The notes beneath the pieces are model-generated. The model saw nothing but the letters and a program-made list of their open reading frames with translations, had not been told where the DNA came from and searched no databases. From positions 1,376,001-1,440,000 of the forward strand of contig CAVOFT010000001.1 of assembly GCA_963695095.1 (NCBI GenBank): a stretch of DNA of 64,000 bases, read 5' to 3'. Made by a program: the position numbers and the translations under genes. Shown here piece after piece: positions 300 to 9,941 of the stretch. Numbering within the stretch: the stretch's first letter is position 1; each line of letters starts with the position of its first letter. This DNA is from an uncultured bacterium. GTDB taxonomy: Bacteria > Krumholzibacteriota > Krumholzibacteriia > JACNKJ01.

Positions 300-569
300 A
301 TTAGCACTCGGATTGGGTCTTCGTGTCTGGACCCCTCAAGCAGGTTGGGACTCGCCAAGTCTTCCCGATGCCTGACGAGCGGGTGCAGGGACTCCCGGAA
401 CCGGTTGCGGCGATCCTGCGGTGCCGCGGCGATTCCGGGCGGGGGCCCCCGTCCCGGGTCCCAACGGTCTCGGGGGTGCGGAGTTCCAGCCTGAGTAGCC
501 CCACGGGCCGGTCCGGATCCGGCTCGACTGATTCGTCTCGAAACAACCATTGCCTTAATGGGGGGTAAT

Positions 570-3500
570 ATGAAGAGGATCCTCTCTCTGACCCTAAGCC
601 TCGCTCTCGTGGCCCTGGTGGCAAGTGCCGGGTTTGCGCGCGATGTCGTCAAGGACACGCGCACGAACTTCGAGTACCGCACGCCGCAGCCGGCCCCGGT
701 GACTACCGCGAGCGCTCGGGCAGACACGTTTTTCCTGTTCGCGGCCTCGGGTCCCGGCGCCAAGGGCATGCCGGGCACCAACAGCCGCGGCTACACCTTT
801 GACAACGGCTCCGGTGGCCCGGCCACCGCTGGCTGGACGACCTACGATGCCACGGCTCAGGCCGGGACTTACTGGCATCTGCAGGCGCTGACGCTGAGCA
901 ACGGCCACGGCACGGATTTCTCGACGGCGGCTGGCTTGCCGCCGACGGGCGGCCCGACCGCTGGTAACGACTTCGCGTGGTGGTGCGGTCGCCAGAACGC
1001 TTGCGGCTGGGCGAATCCCACCGGCTACGGCACCAGCTGGAACCAGTGGCTCGAGCTGGCGGTGCCGGCGGCGGCCACCGGCGGCACGATCGAGTTCGAT
1101 TACGTCGCGGACTTCGAGGGTGACACCTTCGACTTCTTCACCCTGTACACGAAGACCGGCGCCAACGATCCCGTGCAGCTGTTGACCAACACCATCAGCG
1201 GCGAGCAGACCGTGCTCCACTACGGTCCCACCGCTTTCGGCGATGTCGACAAGCTCATCTTCGCCTTCGTGTCCGATGGCGGCTGGTCCGATGAGGACGG
1301 CTCCTTCATCACGGACATCGGTGCGGTCTGGGTCGACAACTTCGTGGTCGACTACACCGGCGCCACGGATCTGGCCTGGAACTTCGAGGACGGCGTCGAG
1401 GCCAACTACCCCGCGCTGACCGCGAGCTTCCCCGCGGGCGCGGGCATCTACGGCGCGCTCTATGCCAATCTGTTCAGCGAGGACGTGTGCATCACGAACT
1501 CGACCTATGCCTGGGCTTTCTTCGATCTGAACACGACGAACCCCGAGTACCCGATCCCGGTGACCGCCTACGGTCCGCCCTACGTCGAGAACGGCATCCA
1601 GAGCCCGATCTTCGAGAAGGCGCACGCCCTCGGCGATGCCGTGGGTACCTCGGTTCTCGATCAGCACGATGCGAACTCGCAGTTCCTCGTCCGCTGGATG
1701 GTCTACCGCGACCTGCCTCTGAACGCGCTGATTTTCTACCAGCTGTTCGTCGCGGCGCAGACCGTCGAGGTGCCTTGCCTCGGCCAGTGGGCCAACAACA
1801 ACACCGTGTGGTACGGTGACGACAATGCCTGGGGCGACTGGTTCATCGACTACACGCTGCGTCTGGCGACGTCCGCGGCCGGCAATACCGTCAACGGTAT
1901 CGCCATCCGTCTGAACTCGCTCGACCAGTGCGGCGTCTGGTGCAACACCTACGGTGACGGCACCGGCCATACCCCCGCGCCTTACTTCGACATGGTCTCG
2001 GCGATGCTGGTCAACAGCTCGTCGATCGCCTGGAACACCGACGTGTTCCGCCGCCTCCAGGACAACTTCCCTGAGACCAGCGGCAAGGTGCGCATCGACA
2101 GCTGCGATCGACGTTCAGCCCACCACCAGCACCACGCTGGTGATCGGCGACTCGACCCGCGTCGACCTGAACATGGACGGCAACGGCGGCATCGGCCTGG
2201 ATCCCAACACCGGCACTCGCCGCGCAGTGTACATGCACTTCCGCGTCGTGGCCGGCCCGCATGCGGGTTCGACCGCCGCGGCGATGGGCGATCCGGACAT
2301 CAGCGACGGCATCTACTCGCCGCTCGTTGGCACGACCGTTGTGAACGGTGAGACCTGGAATGTCGCGGTGGCGGACACTGCCCGCTACCAGAGCACCCAG
2401 AGCCCCGGCTCCTGGGCCTTCGACCTCGCGGATGACTACTTCGAGGCCGGCGACGTCATCGAGTTCTACTGGAAGGGCATCGCGGCCGACGCTACCGTGT
2501 CGACCCGTCCGCTCTACGCCGAGAATGCCGATCCCGAGCTGCGTAGCTACTACACCGTGCGCTGCCTGCCGACGGCCGGCGCCACGATGCTGTACTGCGA
2601 CGACGGCTGGGGCGCTGGCGGCGTCGGTTTCATGCCGTACTGGGAGCTGGCCTTCCGCTACAACGGCTACGAGGACTACGATGTGTACGTGACCCAGGCG
2701 CCCAGCTCGGGTCTGCACAACGGCCTCGGCGGCCGCGCCGAAATCGGTGACATCGATCAGTACCAGGTGATCATCTTCGACAGCGCTGACCTGCCCACCT
2801 ACACGATCCAGAACGCGCTGCCCGATGACCTCACCTTCGACGACGTGCTGCTGGACGACTGGCTCGTCAACAGCTCCCACAACACCTGCCTCTGGGTGCT
2901 GGGGAACGAAATCGCGACGGACCAGGCGGACGAGCCGAGCTTCCTGAACAACGACCTTGGCGCCGTGCGCATCCTGTCCGGCACCTACTATGATGACCTC
3001 ACCGGCATCGTGGTGCCCAAGGTGTTCTCGTCGCATCCTGCGCTGCTGATCGGCGGCATCCAGCCCTACTTCAACGTGGATGCGGGCTGCCCGTCGATCG
3101 ACAACCTGGATCTGGTGGCGCTGAACACCGGCAACCCCCTGGCCGTCGAGGCCATGCGGTGGGCGGTCACGGGCGGCAGCCAGGCCAAGGCTGGTATCTA
3201 CAACCAGGATCCGGACGGCAATGGTACTGCCCTGAGCCCCGGTGGCTTCACCAACCGGACCCTGTTCAACCCGTTCAGCTACTATGAAGTCTGGGATGCC
3301 GGCTTCGGCACCGGTCAGGGCTACAGCTACGCTCGCCTCTTGGTTGGCGACGTGCTGTCGAACCTCTGCGGTTTCGATCCCAACGGCACCCCGGACGGCG
3401 TGGATGTCGTGCCGGCGAGCTTCGCGCTCAAGGGCAACTTCCCGAATCCCTTCAACCCCACGACCACGATCAAGTTCGATCTGGCTGCCAGCGAGTACGT

Positions 3501-3693
3501 GCACCTGAACGTGTACGATCTCAGCGGCCGCCTGGTGAAGACGCTGGTTGATCAGCCGATGTCGGCTGACAGCCATGAGGTGGTTTGGGACGGCAAGGAC
3601 AACGGCGGTGTCCGCGTGGCCAGCGGCGTGTACTTCTACAAGCTGGTCGCCGGCGATTTCAACGCCACCGAGAAGATGGTGATGTTGAAGTAG
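570..3693 (+). CDS. Large secreted exoprotein A1 (~1040 aa) with C-terminal FlgD-Ig/T9SS-like sorting domain; one +1 frameshift near 2103
   Basis: Signal peptide MKRILSLTLSLALVALVASAGFA; ORFs 558..2351 and 1954..3693 join at KVRIDS/AIDVQPTTSTTLVIGDS, collinear with intact paralogue 4349..7474; C-terminus NFPNPFNPTTTIKF...VYDLSGRLV...WDGKDNGG..VASGVYFYKL...KMVMLK. Confidence 0.85.
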
Positions 3694-3760
3694 TCCGCTC
3701 ACTCGTTTGCTCTCGCGCACGAAACAACGTGCGCGACCCGCAAACGAGCTCGCTTGCGAA
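3690..3760. repeat. Cruciform/REP-like element, copy 1
   Basis: GTAG start; 9-bp stem CTCGTTTGC/GCAAACGAG, 2x3 internal loop, 9-bp stem TCGCGCACG/CGTGCGCGA, loop AAACAA, then CTCGCTTGCGAA; homologous to reverse complement of 7471..7545. Confidence 0.75.
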
Positions 3761-3770
3761 AGCAGAGCAG

Positions 3771-3802
3771 AAGGGGGAGCCGCAAGGCTCCCCCTTTTTC
3801 TT
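3771..3802 (+). terminator. Rho-independent terminator of A1
   Basis: AAGGGGGAGCC-GCAA-GGCTCCCCCTTTTTCTT hairpin plus T-tract. Confidence 0.9.
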
Positions 3803-4348
3803 GCGCGCGAGGTGCTCCAGGCGCTCGGCCGGCACCCGCGGCCGCCGGCGCCCGTTGCCGCTGGTCGGGACGGGGATGACGGCGGACGGACAACTCAATG
3901 ACGAATACCGCTCCCAGCGCCGCCGCCGGTTTCCTCCTATAACACAAGCATTGACAACGGTATGCGATGGTGGCCCTCGGGCCCTCACAAGGGCCTTTTA
4001 TCTCTCGCCTCCTGATCCCTGTTCGCCCCCTCGGATGGCATCTGTAAAAGTTGTACCGCACGCATTGACAAGGACTTACGATCAGAGGCCGGAGCGCCTT
4101 GGGTACGGCTCCTGCAGGGGCCCGATTGGTTGTTTCGAGGCGAGCCTAGCCTCGAGGGGCCGCCGTCCCGGCCGGGCTGCGGGCCGCGGCGCGTGACCGC
4201 AGGGCAAGCGGGCGACAGGGCCAAGACACCGGGCAAGCGATCCCTGGTCCTGCTCTTTTCCCCCCGCGCGCTCCACGCCGCCGCGGGCGAGGCATGATCC
4301 GCCGAGTCGGCGATTCCTCATCACGACTCACAGGACTGGGGGAATACC

Positions 4349-7300
4349 ATGACTCGACGACTGATCACTGCCCTGCTGGGGCTGGCAGCGTTCATGCCGC
4401 CTCTGCAGGCCGCGGCCCGAGAGGCCGCGCGGCCCGATCGAGGCCACATCGCCCTGGAGGGCCCCGCGCGCGGGGCCCCGCCCGCAGCGAACCTCCGCGC
4501 TCGCGAGGACACGCTCTTCCTCTTCGCGGCCTCGGGGCCGGGCGCCTACGGGGCACCGGGTACCGACGACCGCGGCTATACCTTCGACAACGGCGCCGGC
4601 GGCCCGGCCATGGCCGGCTGGACCCCGGTGGATCTGACGGTGCAGGCCGGCGCGTGGTGGCACCTGGCCGACGCCGACATGGTGGACGGCCTGCCCACGG
4701 ACATGAGCGCCGCCGGCCAGCCCTGGACGGTGGGGGACACGAACAACGACTTCGCGCTCTGGTGCGGGCGACAGAACGTCTGCGGGTGGCTCAATCCCAC
4801 GGGCTACGGCAACGACTGGGAACAGATCGTCGCTCTGGCCCAGCCGGGCTTCGCCACCTCGCTGCAGGTGAATTTCGTCTACAACAGCGACTTCGAAGGC
4901 GACGTCTACGATTTCTTCACGGTCGAGATCGAGGTGAACGGAACCGCCCAGGAGGTGTTCCGGCACAACGTGGCCGCCGACCGCACCTTCCACGACTTCA
5001 GCGTGACCATCAACAAGGCCGACTACCCCACCGGGGCCAATTTCGGCGATGTGCTCTTCCACTTCAGCGCGGACGGCGGCTGGTCGGACGAGGATGGCTC
5101 CTTCATCTCGGACATCGGCGCGGTCTGGCTCGACAACCTGGAGCTGAGGGCGGACGCGGTGACGGTCTTCCGGGCCGACCTCGAGGATGGCGTGCTCCCT
5201 GCTGCCATCGACTTCACCGTGCCGCTGGGCGCGGGCAGTTTCGGGGCGCTCTACCAGGGGCTCTTCTCAGAGGACATCTGCATCGTCAACTCGAGCCATG
5301 CCTGGGCGTTTTTCGACCTCAACACCACGAATCCCGAGTACCCGATCCCGGTGACGGTCTACGGGCCGCCTTACATGGACAGCGCCGTGCGCAGCCCCCT
5401 GCTCGAGCGGGCTCACGCGGCGGGCAGCGCCGGCGGACAGCCGCTGGTGATCACGCCCGAAACGCAGGTGAATCTCGAGTACTGGGTCTACCTGGACATG
5501 CCGCTCAATGCGCTCGTCTTCGAGAAGTGGCGGGTGGCGGCGATCACCGAGGAGCAGCCCTGCCTCAGCGGCTTCAAGGATGACCAGACGAGCTACTACG
5601 GGGACCAGAAGATCTGGTTCGCCGCGGACCGCAACGTCACGCTCGCGGTCGCCGAGGCGGCGGCGGGTGGCACGGTGACGGGCCTCGTCGTCCAGATGGA
5701 GTCCATCGACCGCTGCCCGGACTGGTGCAACCAGTACGGCGACGGCACGGGCCACACGCCGGCGCCCTACTTCGACAACGTGCGCATCAAGCTGATCAAC
5801 GCCTCGGCCGTGGCCTGGAACGTGGATCAGTACCGGCGCTTCCAGGACAATTTCCCGGAGGTCGGGACCGGCAAGGTGCGCATCGACAACAGCGACGACA
5901 TCGCGCCGCCGAACAGCAACACGCTGGTGATCGGCGACTCGACGGTCGTCGACCTGAACATGGATCTGGCGGGAGGCATCAAGCCGAACGCGAGCAATCC
6001 CACCGGCCAGACCCGCCCGGAATTCTACCTCTGGTTCCGCGTCGTCTCCGGTCCCCATGCCGGCTCCACGGCGGCCGCCATGGGCGATCCGGACGCCGGC
6101 GACGGCATCTGGTCGCCGCACGTGGGCACGGCTGACTTCAACGGCCTCACCTTCAACGCCCTGCTCGCCGACTCGGCCCGCTACCAGGGCACGACGGTGG
6201 CGGGCACCTATGCCTTCGACTTCAACGATGCCTTCTTCGAGCCCGGGGACGTGATCGAGTTCTTCTACCGCGCCGAATCCGGCACGGGGGTCATCGAAAC
6301 CCGTCCCCGCTACGCCACGGCCAACGATCCTCAGCTCCGCGCCTACTACACGGTGCGCTGCCTGCCGACCGCTGGCGTGGCGATGCTCTACTGCGAGGAC
6401 AACTTCGGCGATCTGCCCTGGTGGGATGAGGCTTTCCGCTACAACGGCTATGCCGACTACGACATCTACACCACGCAGGCGCCGAGCTCGGGCCTCAACA
6501 ACGGGCTCAGCGGGCGGGCGGAACTGGGGGACATCGACCAGTACCAGGTGATCGTCTGGGACAGCAGCAACCTGCCTTCCTACACCCTGAGCAACGCCCT
6601 GCCTGAGGACAAGACCTTCGACACCGTGCTCCTCGACGATTGGCTGGCCAACAGCAGCCACGACACCTACCTGTGGGTGATGGGCTGTCAGGTCGCCAAT
6701 GACCTCGGCGCTTCCGATCCCTTCCTCGGCACCGATCTCGGTGCCTCGCTCCTGTTCGCCAATCAGTACCTGGACGACGTGACCGGCGTGCTCGTGCCCA
6801 AGGTCTACGCCACCCATCCCGCGCTCGAATGGCTGGGCGCCAGCCCGAGCTTCTGGGTGGACGGCGGCTGCCCCTCGGTGGAGAACTTCGCCATGGTGGC
6901 CCGCAACGGCCAGTTCGCGCTGGAGAGCCATGCCTGGGAGAATACCGGCGGCACGACGGCGGTGGCGGGCATCTACAACCGGGATCCGGACGGCAACGGC
7001 ACGGCGACGAGCGCAGCCGGGCACATCAATCGCACGCTCTTCAACCCCTTCGGCTATTTCCAGGTGCGGGACGCCGGCTACGGCGTCGCCCAGGGTGTGG
7101 ACTACGCCCGCAAGATGGTGGGCGACATCCTGTCCAACCTGCTCAGCCGCGATCCCGACACCGTGCCCGATGGCGCGGGCGAGATCCCGGCGGCGACGGC
7201 GCTCAAGGGCAGCACTCCGAATCCATTCAATCCCAAGACCACCCTCCATTTCGCGCTGGCCGTCGACGCGCCCGTCCACCTGGGCGTCTACGACCTGGCC

Positions 7301-7474
7301 GGGCGGCGGGTGCGGCAACTCCTGGCCGGCGAGCGCAGCCTCGCCGCCGGGCAGCATGAAGTCGTCTGGGACGGCCGCAGCGATGCGGGCGACCGCGTCG
7401 CCAGCGGCGTCTACTTCGTCCGCATGCAGGCGGACGCGGTGAGCCAGACGCTCAAGCTGGTGCTTCTCAAGTAG
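4349..7474 (+). CDS. Large secreted exoprotein A2 (1041 aa), paralogue of A1, C-terminal FlgD-Ig/T9SS-like domain
   Basis: Signal peptide; blocks shared with A1 (DGGWSDEDGSFI.DIGAVW.DN, WAFFDLNTTNPEYPIPVT.YGPPY, YGDGTGHTPAPYFD, YYTVRCLPTAG); C-term PNPFNPKT...VASGVYF...KLVLLK. Confidence 0.9.
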   Translation: MTRRLITALLGLAAFMPPLQAAAREAARPDRGHIALEGPARGAPPAANLRAREDTLFLFAASGPGAYGAPGTDDRGYTFDNGAGGPAMAGWTPVDLTVQAGAWWHLADADMVDGLPTDMSAAGQPWTVGDTNNDFALWCGRQNVCGWLNPTGYGNDWEQIVALAQPGFATSLQVNFVYNSDFEGDVYDFFTVEIEVNGTAQEVFRHNVAADRTFHDFSVTINKADYPTGANFGDVLFHFSADGGWSDEDGSFISDIGAVWLDNLELRADAVTVFRADLEDGVLPAAIDFTVPLGAGSFGALYQGLFSEDICIVNSSHAWAFFDLNTTNPEYPIPVTVYGPPYMDSAVRSPLLERAHAAGSAGGQPLVITPETQVNLEYWVYLDMPLNALVFEKWRVAAITEEQPCLSGFKDDQTSYYGDQKIWFAADRNVTLAVAEAAAGGTVTGLVVQMESIDRCPDWCNQYGDGTGHTPAPYFDNVRIKLINASAVAWNVDQYRRFQDNFPEVGTGKVRIDNSDDIAPPNSNTLVIGDSTVVDLNMDLAGGIKPNASNPTGQTRPEFYLWFRVVSGPHAGSTAAAMGDPDAGDGIWSPHVGTADFNGLTFNALLADSARYQGTTVAGTYAFDFNDAFFEPGDVIEFFYRAESGTGVIETRPRYATANDPQLRAYYTVRCLPTAGVAMLYCEDNFGDLPWWDEAFRYNGYADYDIYTTQAPSSGLNNGLSGRAELGDIDQYQVIVWDSSNLPSYTLSNALPEDKTFDTVLLDDWLANSSHDTYLWVMGCQVANDLGASDPFLGTDLGASLLFANQYLDDVTGVLVPKVYATHPALEWLGASPSFWVDGGCPSVENFAMVARNGQFALESHAWENTGGTTAVAGIYNRDPDGNGTATSAAGHINRTLFNPFGYFQVRDAGYGVAQGVDYARKMVGDILSNLLSRDPDTVPDGAGEIPAATALKGSTPNPFNPKTTLHFALAVDAPVHLGVYDLAGRRVRQLLAGERSLAAGQHEVVWDGRSDAGDRVASGVYFVRMQADAVSQTLKLVLLK

Positions 7475-7545
7475 TTCGCAAGCGAGTCTCCCCTCCTGGC
7501 CGCGCGCGTTGTTTCGCGCGCGGCGGGAGGGGAGCGAGCGTCTAC
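7471..7545. repeat. Cruciform/REP-like element, copy 2 (inverted relative to copy 1)
   Basis: GTAG-TTCGCAAGCGAG...CTCCCCTCC/GGAGGGGAG and CCGCGCGCG/CGCGCGCGG stems, loop TTGTTT, ends GAGCGAGCGT-CTAC. Confidence 0.75.
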
Positions 7546-7590
7546 AACGCGCGCGGCGCGGAGCCGAGCCCGCACCTTTCAACTCCAGCC

Positions 7591-7616
7591 GGGGGAGCCG
7601 CTTGGCTCCCCCTTTT
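7591..7616 (+). terminator. Rho-independent terminator of A2
   Basis: GGGGGAGCC-GCTT-GGCTCCCCC-TTTT; stem identical to the A1 terminator. Confidence 0.8.
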
Positions 7617-7709
7617 CCTGCTCCCGGGCCCCGGCGGCAGCCGCCGGGGCCCGGGGTGCGGCCGGCGCCCGGCCCCGGGACGGCTCCGGGGTGCCTCGGG
7701 GCTTTTGGG

Positions 7710-7739
7710 TTGACTTCAAATCCCACAATTCCCTATATT
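7710..7739 (+). promoter_or_regulatory. Putative sigma70 promoter of the lipoprotein operon
   Basis: TTGACT-N18-TATATT in an AT-rich patch ~75 nt upstream of ATG 7815. Confidence 0.65.
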
Positions 7740-7814
7740 ACAGCCGCTTTACCCCACTCATGCCTGCCCTCGTGCCCCGAGACTCCACACCCTGGGTGGA
7801 AGGAGCGGATTATC

Positions 7815-9941
7815 ATGCTGGGGATTGACCGCCGCCTGAGGACTTCCCTTCTGGCCGCCGCCGGGCTTGCCCTGGCCTTGGGTCTGGGTTGTCGCCGCGA
7901 GTTGCCCGAGCTCTTCGACCGCAACAAGGCGCCGGAGACCTACGTCACCGCGGCCCCGGTGGAATCCCTCTTCGATGGCTTCCGCGTACAGCTCAACTGG
8001 TACGGCCTCGATCCCGACGGCGAGATCGCCTACTACCTCTGGGCCTGGACCGACTCCTCGCGCGCCTACTTCTCGGCCTGGAATCCCGAGACCCGGGCCG
8101 ACGACCGCATCCTCCGCGAGGGGCTCTTCGAGGCCACGCACCTGACGACGCGCACCGATTCCATCTTCACCATCCAGGCCAACGACAACGGCGGCACGGC
8201 GCGGGACGTGACCTTCAACGTCACGGCCGTCGACGATCAGGGCAAGCGCGACCCGGTGCCGGCGCGGCTGTACTTCTTCGGCAGCGTCGACGCCCGCCCC
8301 CAGATCGTCTGGCTCGACACGCCGCCGGACACGCTCGACTCCGGGGAGGCATTCACCTGCCGCTTCACGGCGACGACCCAGAACGGCTACATCCTCGGCT
8401 ACAGGTGGGCCTCGGGGGCCGATCCCAACTTCGAGCCCCAGAGTAGGACCGGCGAGCAGATCTGGACCTACCAGATCGCCGATGACTGCAGCAACGTCGA
8501 TCTGGAAGACGGCTACTGCGGCCTGCAGGATTCGACGGCGATCAGCCTGAGCTTCGCGAACGACATCGGCGGCGCCGATTCTCTCATGGTCGAGTTCTAC
8601 AAGTTTGGCACCTTTCTCATCAAAGCGCGCGCGATCGACCTGGCCGGCGTCGAGTCCGAGTTGAACACCTCGCTGAGCAATCTGAAAGGTGCCGTGGCGC
8701 CGGTGCTCAACCGCGACCCGGATACGCGCCTGCGGCCCTGGGACGGCGCCGAGGACTACCCGATCGAGGTGACCTATCCGACGGGCCAGGGCCAGAGCGA
8801 GGTCTACCGCCTCAACGCCGTGCGCGTGGATACCCTGCCCGACGGCCGCCCAGCGCCGCCCGGATTCCACTACGCCGTGCGCGAGACCGTGCCCTGGGGC
8901 GCTACCGCCTGGATCCGCTTCTTCTGGCAGGGCTGGGATTACGACGACCCCATCATCGCCGCCGATATCGAGGACATCGTGGGGGACGAGGATACGATCC
9001 AGACCCGCTTCCAGATGAGCTACTCCTGGACGAAGCAGAACCTCACGAATGGCGCCGCCTTCAGCGCCAACTCCAACGGGCGCTATCCGGCCGGCGGCGA
9101 GCTCGGCTACCCGGAGGAACTCGAGTTCGATGCTTTCGGCGAGGCGGGCAGCACTTTCCGGATGAACATCCTGCCCGTGACCTATACGGTCTACGGCTAC
9201 GCCCAGGACCACTTCGAGCGCGTCGACGGCACGCCGGTCTCGGTCACCTTCACGGGCGGCTTCGCCTCCACGGTGGACAGCATCGTCCTCAGCGCCACCA
9301 AGGGCGACGGCAGCCCCTCGGGCGTGCGCGTGAACCTGAGCACCCTGCCGCCGGGCGCTCCGGTGCGCGTCGCGCTGCATGCCTATCCAGCGTTCTGGCC
9401 GCCCACATCCGAAGTCGGCGCCTGGAATCCGACAACGCGCACCTTCACATTGAATCCGAGCGTCGTCACCGGGGTCGGGCCGAGCGCATTGGACGAGTTC
9501 AATCCGACCTTCACGTTCTATGGGCACGACGACCCGCGCAACGGCGAAGCCGTGCAGCTCGGGCGCGCGCGCTGGGATCTGGTGGATCCCGACTTTCCGA
9601 TCAGCAGCCTGCAATTCGTGACGGATGTCTACGAGGCGGCCGACCAGACCACCGTGAACTTCTGGAAGGAGGTCTTCCCGGGCAACGCCGATCCGCCGGC
9701 CTCCGGGAGCTTCACCGTGCAGCTCAAGATCCGGGACATCTTCTCCGCGATCAACGCGGGCCCGACGCCGACCTATCTGGGTCCGAAGACCTTCCAGGGC
9801 GAATTCTGCAATACCATCGCCTCGCAGGTCGTGACGGAGATGATCGAGGACACGCCGCAACGCCAGATCGGTCTCAATAACACCGGGCGCGTCAGCCTGC
9901 CCCTGCGCGCCCAAGTCGATATTCAGTACGCGCCGTTCTAG
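7815..9941 (+). CDS. Lipoprotein L1 with Ig/Y_Y_Y-like beta-sandwich repeats, unknown function
   Basis: GGAAGGAG RBS, ATG 7815; lipobox LGLG-C; N-terminal module NKAPETY...VQLNWYGLDPDGEIAYYLW...FNVTAVDDQG resembles L2/L3 modules. Confidence 0.8.
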   Translation: MLGIDRRLRTSLLAAAGLALALGLGCRRELPELFDRNKAPETYVTAAPVESLFDGFRVQLNWYGLDPDGEIAYYLWAWTDSSRAYFSAWNPETRADDRILREGLFEATHLTTRTDSIFTIQANDNGGTARDVTFNVTAVDDQGKRDPVPARLYFFGSVDARPQIVWLDTPPDTLDSGEAFTCRFTATTQNGYILGYRWASGADPNFEPQSRTGEQIWTYQIADDCSNVDLEDGYCGLQDSTAISLSFANDIGGADSLMVEFYKFGTFLIKARAIDLAGVESELNTSLSNLKGAVAPVLNRDPDTRLRPWDGAEDYPIEVTYPTGQGQSEVYRLNAVRVDTLPDGRPAPPGFHYAVRETVPWGATAWIRFFWQGWDYDDPIIAADIEDIVGDEDTIQTRFQMSYSWTKQNLTNGAAFSANSNGRYPAGGELGYPEELEFDAFGEAGSTFRMNILPVTYTVYGYAQDHFERVDGTPVSVTFTGGFASTVDSIVLSATKGDGSPSGVRVNLSTLPPGAPVRVALHAYPAFWPPTSEVGAWNPTTRTFTLNPSVVTGVGPSALDEFNPTFTFYGHDDPRNGEAVQLGRARWDLVDPDFPISSLQFVTDVYEAADQTTVNFWKEVFPGNADPPASGSFTVQLKIRDIFSAINAGPTPTYLGPKTFQGEFCNTIASQVVTEMIEDTPQRQIGLNNTGRVSLPLRAQVDIQYAPF

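Follow-up and report, generated by a model that had tools for sequence, protein, structure and literature searches.

Two T9SS cargo genes in the window (the whole 64,000-nucleotide stretch of DNA analysed here) each end in a hairpin at the stop codon, followed by an intrinsic terminator (Table 1). The sorting domains were recognised by matches to TIGR04183 at 3439-3681 (genome 1379439-1379681) in the first gene and at 7217-7462 (genome 1383217-1383462) in its paralogue. Pfam domains were FlgD_ig and Por_Secre_tail in the first gene and FlgD_ig in the paralogue.

Table 1. Features at the 3′ ends of the two cargo genes, in window coordinates.
Feature	Position	Strand	Basis or remark
Cargo gene 3′ end: T9SS C-terminal sorting domain and stop codon TAG (3691-3693)	3439..3693	+	ORF 1954-3693
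Hairpin repeat copy 1, sense	3690..3760	+	Fold; covariance-model score 84.3 bits, E 3e-15
Intrinsic terminator GGGGGAGCC-GCAA-GGCTCCCCC with T run, 13 nt 3′ of copy 1	3773..3799 (hairpin 3773-3794)	+	
Paralogous cargo gene 3′ end: sorting domain and stop codon TAG (7472-7474)	7217..7474	+	ORF 4349-7474
Hairpin repeat copy 2, antisense to both neighbours	7471..7545	-	Fold; covariance-model score 77.5 bits, - strand
Intrinsic terminator, stem as behind copy 1, with T run	7591..7617 (hairpin 7591-7612)	+	Outside the inverted segment; keeps the gene's orientation

Copy 1 begins with GTAG (3690-3693), of which the last three bases are the stop codon of the gene. The outer helix is formed by annealing of CTCGTTTGC (3702-3710) and GCAAACGAG (3740-3748), and is separated by an internal loop (TC/CCC) from an inner helix of TCGCGCACG (3713-3721) and CGTGCGCGA (3728-3736), which is closed by the apical loop AAACAA (3722-3727). 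The 3′ flank is CTCGCTTGCGAA (3749-3760); by itself this 12-mer was not above chance, as 10 of 100 shuffles contained two or more matches when one mismatch was allowed. Copy 2 is the mirror image of copy 1, with the flank at 7475-7486, the outer helix at 7488-7496/7526-7534, the inner helix at 7500-7508/7515-7523 and the loop at 7509-7514 (TTGTTT on the + strand); the genes on either side of it are both on the + strand. Both copies folded better than their shuffled sequences (z -4.2 to -5.9; 0 of 200 shuffles as good).

The sequence-only reading of this DNA had described the position and shared geometry of the two hairpins, six compensated differences between their stems, and same-orientation terminators with identical stems behind both. 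Each of these details was borne out by the sequence and the folds: four differences lie in the outer helix and two in the inner, all six are compensated, and GGGGGAGCC/GGCTCCCCC with a T run follows at both sites. The reading had also attached meaning to the GTAG and CTAC that bound copy 2 (7471-7474 and 7542-7545). Indeed, these form the outermost helix, and everything within it (7475-7541) is inverted. A consensus terminator scan listed the terminator at 7591; the terminator at 3773 was missing from its list.

A hairpin family seen in one genus

The 3.64-Mb genome (G000) contains at least 29 copies, two of which are the window hairpins. A hairpin scan of both strands found 90 AAACAA sites, of which 22 cap a perfectly paired GC stem of 7-10 bp built to the same plan, and a covariance model gave 37 matches, comprising 29 loci and 8 opposite-strand echoes. 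Two congeners carried at least 26 (G001) and at least 13 (G002) loci, making a pooled set of 68 copies from the three genomes. These copy counts are minimum values, since 150 of about 9700 candidates were scored in the model search. The sequence-only reading had proposed such a scan and was to be dropped if neither further copies nor covariation turned up; both were found, in the genome and in the congeners, and so it survives on this point.

Among the relatives, all 38 genomes from other genera lacked the element, and it was not found in 148 genomes from 68 other genera of the phylum. In the phylum sample 149 of 151 genomes had no match, and the two with matches both belong to this genus (one of 69 genera). 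The hairpins are thus known to date from a single bacterial genus. A search of window positions 3000-8500 against Rfam 15, with E up to 10, returned nine chance-level matches, all far below the gathering scores and none fitting the hairpin.

The repeat is a three-tier hairpin made of a basal helix, a 3x3 internal loop, a variable helix of 9 bp, a GC helix of 9 bp and an apical loop, with a small internal loop or bulge between the two 9-bp helices. Its core is about 52 nt and the complete unit 70-80 nt (about 75 bp). The middle positions of the variable helix vary freely, and the GC helix and apical loop are conserved. Apical loops of three types (AAACAA, GCTTCACA and GCTTCGAA) occur on the one scaffold and differ between genomes, even at one orthologous site. 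The flanks, GCTCR on the 5′ side and CTCGCT on the 3′ side, are similar in all copies, with no variation from copy to copy. Tandem half-copies exist. Copies are mostly singlets, and only two convergent pairs (3212153/3212312 and 3232622/3232767) were found in G000.

A 20-pair model of 16 copies had 91.2% of its cells paired, and 13 of the 20 pairs had changed on both sides. None of 500 shuffles reached any of the five measures used, and slid controls were 29-55% paired. The genome-wide copies and the covariation statistics thus place the window pair far beyond chance. Wobble pairs were scarce, with 2 G-U among the 319 cells of the model; the outer helices of 60 copies comprised 480 Watson-Crick pairs, 10 G-T pairs and 50 mismatches. 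The sense strand had no folding advantage, the opposite strand being better in 58 of 67 copies. The stop codon was paired in the minimum-energy fold of 7 of the 13 copies tested.

Placement at the stop codons of cargo genes

Just 3′ of a T9SS sorting-domain gene lie 56 of the 68 copies, 49 in sense and 7 in antisense orientation. Copies within 290 nt behind the end of a sorting domain number 23 of 29 in G000, and 21 of 26 in G001 and 12 of 13 in G002, where the sorting domains were called with a profile built from G000 tails, not a curated one. The enrichment in G000 corresponds to a Fisher odds ratio of 85 (p = 2e-22; 20 versus 5 called genes), with sorting-domain genes making up 143 of 2765 ORFs. 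About a fifth of the copies stand behind unrelated genes, such as those for isocitrate dehydrogenase and an AMP-binding enzyme. The sequence-only reading had proposed a test for enrichment behind genes that end in AAGTAG and encode such domains; the association with sorting-domain genes held, but AAG-TAG was not general, as the stop codons ahead of the 13 close sense copies were TAG in seven, TGA in five and TAA in one. With these stop codons, identity with a bacterial SECIS element, a hairpin immediately 3′ of an in-frame UGA that undergoes readthrough, was rejected.

Element-bearing cargo genes were spread over 19 of 100 N-terminal families, and presence of the element was not clustered on the sorting-domain tree (21 changes versus a shuffled mean of 24.1, minimum 20). 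The element is therefore not inherited with whole genes. No published link between T9SS and repeats of this kind was found in the literature.

All 29 copies in G000 lie outside long ORFs, mostly in the gap between stop codon and terminator. Among sense copies linked to cargo genes, 13 of 19 have the loop centre 28-33 nt past the stop codon; the base of the hairpin is no more than about 10 nt away from that codon. By a strict rule, 12 of the 29 copies are followed, 36-54 nt past the loop centre, by a distinct hairpin that carries a T run. The genome has 10 occurrences of the terminator stem GGGGGAGCC/GGCTCCCCC, of which 7 adjoin a repeat copy. The repeat has no T run of its own, and identity with an intrinsic (L-shaped) terminator was rejected.

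Extragenic palindromic repeats are usually ascribed to a RAYT transposase, and they are not known to prefer one functional class of gene. The GTAG ahead of both window copies had earlier suggested a REP/REPIN family that owes its mobility to a RAYT (TnpA-REP) transposase. Indeed, the cargo repeats share with REP, BIME and REPIN sequences, as described in excerpts of PMC8266576 and PMC3116915, a short palindromic form with imperfect stems and conserved irregularities, occurrence in both orientations in extragenic, transcribed 3′ regions, and family-wise sequence conservation within a genome. A REP is defined, in an excerpt of PMC8266576, by a tetranucleotide, usually GTAG, that is conserved immediately 5′ of the palindrome, and by a length of 20-50 nt and hundreds of copies. 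By contrast, the cargo repeats are about twice as long, with three helices, are mostly single where REPs often form inverted pairs, are tied to one gene class, and occur in tens of copies (29 + 14 in G000). Only 8 of the 29 G000 copies have GTAG in the 27 nt 5′ of the helices, where it is mostly accounted for by the Lys-stop AAG-TAG, and it was absent behind TGA and TAA stops. Y1_Tnp (PF01797) had no match in G000 (93.5% complete), G001 or G002, and was found in 6 of 14 control genomes. Since there is no RAYT/IS200 transposase, no Rfam match and GTAG in 8 of 29 copies only, the REP/REPIN identity was rejected, and a classical family of this type is very improbable here.

Exchange of cores and inversion at orthologous loci

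Elements have occupied shared orthologous loci since before the split of the three sampled species, and persist where the neighbouring non-coding DNA can no longer be aligned, with cores swapped or homogenised within each genome. At the 3242k locus the core is of the GCTTCACA type in G000 and of the AAACAA type in G001, with the 5′ flank and terminator unchanged; among orthologues of copy 1, one outer helix has taken the place of another between almost identical flanks. In one G000 copy, two arm types known from other copies are combined. In G002, pairwise identity was 87% for the elements, 66% for adjacent coding DNA and 54% downstream.

These exchanges at fixed sites, and units so much more alike than their flanks, would also be produced by an active non-autonomous mobile element, MITE-like or served by another enzyme, that targets the 3′ ends of sorting-domain genes in either orientation. 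Lineage-specific copies (L079 of G001, and a second copy behind the copy 1 orthologue), the tandem half-copies, and flanks resembling a fixed target agree with such an element. We regard it as distinctly improbable, because the three genomes lack a Y1 transposase, each has only 13-29 copies, and variable target-site duplications were not seen. Moreover, the positions are old, since most matchable G002 copies lie at loci where G000 has an element too; at the sole presence/absence locus synteny ends at the stop codon and the boundary is unreadable.

Preservation is as good in antisense as in sense copies. All seven antisense copies retain the AAACAA loop (2552k reads AAACAAGG), the apex stem is intact in six, and in each the basal helix surrounds the inverted span. 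In G000, four copies run opposite to their genes, three of them with a sense orthologue in G002, where none of the 12 cargo-linked copies is inverted. Copy 2 has a sense orthologue in G002 and a degenerate sense orthologue in G001, and is for this reason best read as an in-place inversion. Un-inverting it from GTAG to CTAC restores a stop-codon junction whose 17 nt are the same as in another copy. The inversion at 2985k, with its G001 counterpart L140, predates the split of G000 and G001, and both hairpins are still intact; common to two species, it is old and fixed.

The sequence-only reading had offered a mobile or invertible structured DNA element. Its structured, repeated nature in both orientations held up. 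Programmed inversion gained no support: antisense copies are few (7 of 56 cargo-linked) and one inversion is old and fixed. An invertible switch that toggles the 3′ signal of a cargo gene by phase variation fits a segment bounded by inverted repeats, as well as the four inverted G000 copies and their three sense orthologues, and is nonetheless extremely improbable on these counts and with no inverted copy among the 12 of G002.

Maintenance and possible role of the repeat

The explanation that we consider probable is an undescribed, genus-restricted family of extragenic palindromic repeats of about 75 bp, maintained at the DNA level by template switching and ectopic recombination, with a presumed role at mRNA ends or in termination. 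Upkeep would act on the DNA and not through selection on a single RNA strand. Template switching between the arms during replication would transfer a change from one arm to its partner, producing "compensation" by Watson-Crick pairs only, and could extend the stem as far as the stop codon. Occasionally it would invert all sequence between the arms, leaving copy 2 flipped and its terminator not. Ectopic recombination among copies would account for whole-core swaps and for homogenisation within a genome.

Excerpts of PMC8604942 and PMC13100816 describe template switching at inverted repeats as homogenising the arms, inverting the spacer and sometimes expanding the repeat, and according to an excerpt of PMC8794818 it can create and maintain perfectly paired RNA hairpins. 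The cargo repeats resemble such template-switched repeats (excerpts of these papers and of PMC7202029) in paired changes that are Watson-Crick only, a stem that runs into neighbouring sequence and inversion between the arms. Unlike the single hairpins of those studies, they form a dispersed family that also exchanges cores between loci. The expected signature, complementary arm changes without wobble (2 G-U among 319; 480 Watson-Crick versus 10 G-T), was found in counts over the copies, together with seven spacer inversions.

Some observations point away from DNA-level upkeep. Protein-bound RNA, too, is classically marked by free helices together with conserved apical and internal loops, and the strong sense bias (49 of 56) is as RNA-level selection would predict. 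Template switching leaves the preference for cargo genes, and a stem ending at the stop codon, unexplained. The homogenisation in G002, with 13 dispersed 80-bp copies and a changed apical loop, is demanding for ordinary gene conversion and could involve an enzyme. A cis-regulatory RNA motif dedicated to T9SS cargo mRNAs, in which a genus-specific RNA-binding protein or RNase reads the loops of the sense hairpin and controls stability, termination or localisation, would account for the loop conservation, the covarying helices, the sense bias, the fixed position relative to the stop codon and the persistence at orthologous loci amid unalignable non-coding DNA. It is nevertheless unlikely, given the near absence of G-U pairs, the lack of a folding advantage of the sense strand, the lack of an Rfam match and the copies behind unrelated genes. 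The antisense copies, one kept since before a speciation, and the three apical loops on one scaffold, even at one orthologous site, also argue against it.

If the DNA-level explanation is true, the repeats would be a clean natural case of template switching and ectopic conversion mimicking textbook RNA covariation, and a warning for motif discovery based on covariation. This is a repeat family without RAYT, tied to cargo-gene stop codons in three species, whose sites are long-lived and whose cores are exchanged and homogenised.

With its base this close to the stop codon and a terminator downstream, the hairpin would be part of the mRNA, and by analogy we infer an effect on mRNA 3′ ends or translation termination. 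Most likely it would act as do stop-proximal E. coli REPs, by slowing termination or influencing how stable the 3′ end of the cargo mRNA is; a role as an orientation-independent mRNA stabiliser is a possible candidate. In E. coli, ribosome stalling and reduced translation are reported for REPs less than 16 nt from a stop codon (Liang, Rudd and Deutscher 2015, as cited in an excerpt of PMC12306157). The cargo repeats likewise place the hairpin base within reach of the terminating ribosome, with a real terminator next. They differ in that the stop codon itself lies in the basal helix of many copies.

A purpose-built 3′ signal for T9SS cargo genes, recognised by a genus-specific factor in co-evolution with the apical loop (AAACAA, GCTTCACA or GCTTCGAA), is quite unlikely and may take two forms. 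The structure embedding the stop codon may time release of the nascent cargo chain. Alternatively, the repeat may be an orientation-free DNA site recruiting a topoisomerase or other protein where coupled transcription, translation and export block rotation of the transcription complex; this form would explain both the conservation of antisense copies and the preference for genes of secreted proteins. If a functional reading is true, the repeat would be the first cis-element here specific to T9SS cargo genes.

A hairpin family behind sorting-domain genes

The two hairpin repeats of the window, copy 1 on the + strand and copy 2 on the - strand, had been described as sharing one geometry, and this was found exactly as noted when copy 2 was read as its reverse complement. 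In both, an outer helix and a GC inner helix of 9 bp each are separated by a small internal loop, the apical loop is AAACAA, and the 3′ flank is CTCGCTTGCGAA. All six stem differences between them are compensated (6/6), and both fold far better than shuffled sequences (z -4.2 to -5.9). The genes upstream are paralogous T9SS cargo genes, each with a C-terminal sorting domain, and the + strand terminators behind the two copies have one stem in common. Because the gene following copy 2 is likewise on the + strand, copy 2 is antisense to all its surroundings.

The gene before copy 1 is apparently split into two overlapping ORFs in different frames. The first ORF matches residues 3-516 of the paralogue with 49% identity, whereas it is the second ORF, in another frame, that contains the sorting domain. 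The split means a putative frameshift near window 2110-2350, or an assembly error.

The family extends beyond this pair. In the genome carrying the window (G000; 3.64 Mb, 70% GC, two contigs), 22 of 90 AAACAA sites are the loop of a perfect GC hairpin of 7-10 bp, with the same outer architecture as the window pair. A covariance model built from 16 copies produced 37 matches in G000, comprising 29 loci and 8 opposite-strand echoes; the 29 loci are a lower bound because 150 of ~9700 candidates were scored. The seven copies added by the model have slightly different loops (e.g. AAAAAA, ATACAA, AAACAG). The expected covariation was present: a 20-pair model was 91.2% paired with double changes in 13 pairs, the inner-helix pairing being partly by construction because the first 22 copies were found through that helix and not through the outer one. 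None of 500 shuffles reached any measure of this model, and slid controls were 29-55% paired. An additional basal helix lies below a 3x3 internal loop. In TGA-type copies TGAGC pairs with GCTCA, placing the stop codon inside the hairpin, and at least two of the three stop bases were paired in the minimum-energy fold of 7 of 13 close sense copies.

Model matches were confined to the window's genus, sampled as three genomes plus a few metagenome contigs: G000 and two further carrier genomes, G001 (26 loci) and G002 (13 loci). Under stricter search filters, 0 of 38 relatives' genomes from 26 other genera matched, and an even sample of the phylum gave no match in 149 of 151 genomes, with matches in 1 of 69 genera only. 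Rfam contained no match for the hairpin. The exact apex pattern, searched in one genome per species outside the genus, returned only six unrelated single hairpins. Searching the apex pattern with flanks in metagenomes identified 10 contigs, six apparently from the sample behind G001; in three of the other four, the element occupies loci whose G000 orthologues also have a copy. Among the sequencing runs listed, none contained more than 0.13 of the query words and none was RNA. In G007, from another genus of the same family, the 30 of 148 cargo gene ends that were read had mostly ordinary terminators and no family members.

G000 contains 134 sorting-domain matches by TIGR04183, and 143 by our own profile among 2765 ORFs called with a crude filter made for this analysis. 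Copies are enriched behind such genes: 23 of 29 lie within 130 nt after one (19 sense and 4 antisense relative to the host gene), with a Fisher odds ratio of 85 (p = 2e-22) for the 25 copies that have a called gene. By the same profile, 21 of 26 copies in G001 (18 sense, 3 antisense) and 12 of 13 in G002 (all sense) were cargo-linked. Non-cargo hosts include isocitrate dehydrogenase, a secreted cytolysin-domain protein and an AMP-binding enzyme, whose gene carries the element in all three genomes. Element-bearing cargo genes occur in 19 of 100 N-terminal families, and a sorting-domain tree of weak resolution gave no clear clustering of them; the element's spread was therefore not simply whole-gene duplication. 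The sorting domain ends in Lys in 24 of 26 element-bearing genes versus 75 of 143 overall. Behind cargo genes in general, the first 81 nt have unusually stable folds: 24 of 143 cargo genes reach a fold energy of at most -50 kcal/mol, versus 45 of 2622 others.

Strand, inversion and turnover of the element

GTAG had been taken for a REP-type foot, which would call for a RAYT transposase. It precedes only 8 of 29 copies, mostly supplied by AAG-TAG stops, and PF01797 gave no match in any of the three carrier genomes in searches whose positive controls worked. The size and copy number of the family are also unlike those in a published REP definition (PMC8266576), and REP/RAYT identity was rejected on these grounds. 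No convincing target-site duplication was found around the copies, and at a presence/absence locus (L079 of G001, compared with G000) homology stops at the stop codon, leaving no readable boundary. GC skew, examined to tell replication strand from gene strand, was too flat to place the origin or terminus; the element strand is the gene strand in most cases.

G-U pairs occupy 2 of 319 cells of the 20-pair model. In the outer helix of 60 of 67 copies, the 7 without a clean apex being excluded, 480 Watson-Crick pairs were counted versus 10 G-U. An alignment in which both strands and duplicate loci were mixed contributed to no count. Selection on the sense RNA, sought as wobble-pair asymmetry, was not detected; in 58 of 67 copies it was the opposite strand that folded more stably, an effect due in part to the purine-rich internal loops of that strand. 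All seven antisense copies have kept AAACAA (the copy at 2552k reads AAACAAGG), and the apex stem is intact in six. The inversion at 2985k is common to G000 and G001, the G002 orthologue being sense, and has thus stayed intact since before the G000/G001 split. The scarcity of G-U pairs, the lack of a folding advantage for the element strand and the kept antisense copies point to a DNA-level process. One acting on both strands would fit these data, and template switching between the inverted-repeat arms is a candidate. Published work shows that such switching makes the two arms alike, flips the spacer between them and can enlarge the repeat, and that RNA hairpins can likewise arise and be kept up through it (PMC8604942, PMC13100816, PMC8794818, PMC7202029).

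The orthologue of copy 2 is sense in G002 and a degenerate sense copy in G001 (partial model match, + strand). The basal helix, GTAG/CTAC included, surrounds the inverted span, and the terminator outside that span has retained its orientation. Un-inverting copy 2 in silico restored a 17-nt stop-codon/element junction identical to that of another copy, and the longest match of the present junction elsewhere is 12 nt. Inversion in place is the simplest account of copy 2.

In the flanking coding DNA, identity is 80-92% for G000 versus G001 and 70-78% for G000 versus G002, and non-coding DNA past the terminators is no longer alignable. At least seven G002 loci and most matchable G001 loci have an element where the orthologous G000 locus has one. 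As judged from this orthology, the sites are old and their contents are not. Nearly all G002 copies have one outer helix in common and GCTTCGAA as a different apical loop. Similarity among the G002 copies is 87%, versus 66% in the coding DNA next to them and 54% downstream. The G001 orthologue of copy 1 differs in its outer helix, its flanks and terminator being almost identical. The locus at 3242k has an GCTTCACA-type core in G000 and an AAACAA-type core in G001, with the same 5′ flank and terminator. The 5′ arm of the G000 copy at 2862k resembles the G001 orthologue and its 3′ arm a metagenome orthologue, which accounts for its mismatched helix; by its arms this copy is a recombinant.

Tandem partial copies of one element half adjoin some full copies (table). 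The copy at 3048k and one on contig C2 are nearly the same element and follow the same gene tail (...ELQETRRMILLK-stop); C2, the 29-kb second contig, may represent a segment that is duplicated or in the wrong place.

Terminators and putative function

The terminator stem GGGGGAGCC-N3-4-GGCTCCCCC is itself repeated, with 10 instances, two in the window and eight elsewhere in the genome; seven adjoin hairpin copies and two more adjoin cargo genes. A strict T-run terminator lies directly behind 12 of 29 G000 copies. Situated between stop codon and terminator, the element should therefore be transcribed, a prediction from its position. The base of the hairpin lies close enough for a terminating ribosome to reach it. 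REPs closer than 16 nt to the stop lower translation in E. coli, as reported in PMC12306157, and a similar effect, or 3′-end protection, would be the most economical guess for the element.

Behind copy 2, promoter-like TTGACT-18-TATATT is followed by a stretch 92% identical in G002, amid intergenic DNA that is not alignable. This region, which precedes the next gene, may be a conserved promoter and leader or else a small RNA.

Other palindromes

A second family of hairpins is represented by 14 copies in G000 and by 9 motif matches in G001. Its apex, GGCGCC-GCTTCACA-GGCGCC, is conserved, and its stems are long (up to 28 bp) and vary greatly. Among 40 relatives, the GCTTCACA apex was above background only in G000 (14) and G001 (9). 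Seven of the 14 copies lie behind cargo genes, all sense; at one locus this family takes the place of the AAACAA type, and one copy has the G002-type loop instead.

Features and their positions (window, or contigs C1 and C2 of G000; L-numbers label single loci)
Feature	Position	Locus position
Copy 1	window 3690-3760 (+)	
Copy 2	window 7471-7545 (-)	
First ORF before copy 1	window 558-2351	
Second ORF before copy 1	window 1954-3693	
Paralogue	window 4349-7474	
Terminator stem	window 3773-3794	
Terminator stem	window 7591-7612	
Promoter-like region	window 7710-7775	
5′ half of element, before 386k copy, G000		L035 about 1477-1510
3′ halves, just 3′ of three G002 copies		L070, L064, L080, about 1584-1640
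3048k copy	G000:C1 3048603	L050 about 1440-1500
C2 copy	C2 19527-19606	L033
Second family	G000:C1 3232622, 3232767	L094 7622, 7767
Second family	G000:C1 3242186	L094 17186
Second family	G000:C1 3245480, 3248568	L095 480, 3568
Second family	G000:C1 663139	L159 about 1506
Second family, G002-type loop	G000 547716	
Third palindrome	G000:C1 388667	L039 about 1677
Third palindrome	G000:C1 663296	L036 about 1609
Third palindrome, further sites	772922, 772949, 1117904, 3329194	

A third palindrome, TTG(C/T)CACGTG(G/A)CAA, has about 20 occurrences, most of them intergenic, and is often found just behind cargo-gene terminators or at the tip of a long hairpin. It may be the site of a dimeric regulator or another repeat family. 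Long hairpins also follow a few cargo genes in G007 (L120, L111, L122), with CCGTAGCGACTGTGAAGC or its complement in the apex; TGTGAAGC, noted with these hairpins, is what the loop of the second family reads as on the opposite strand.
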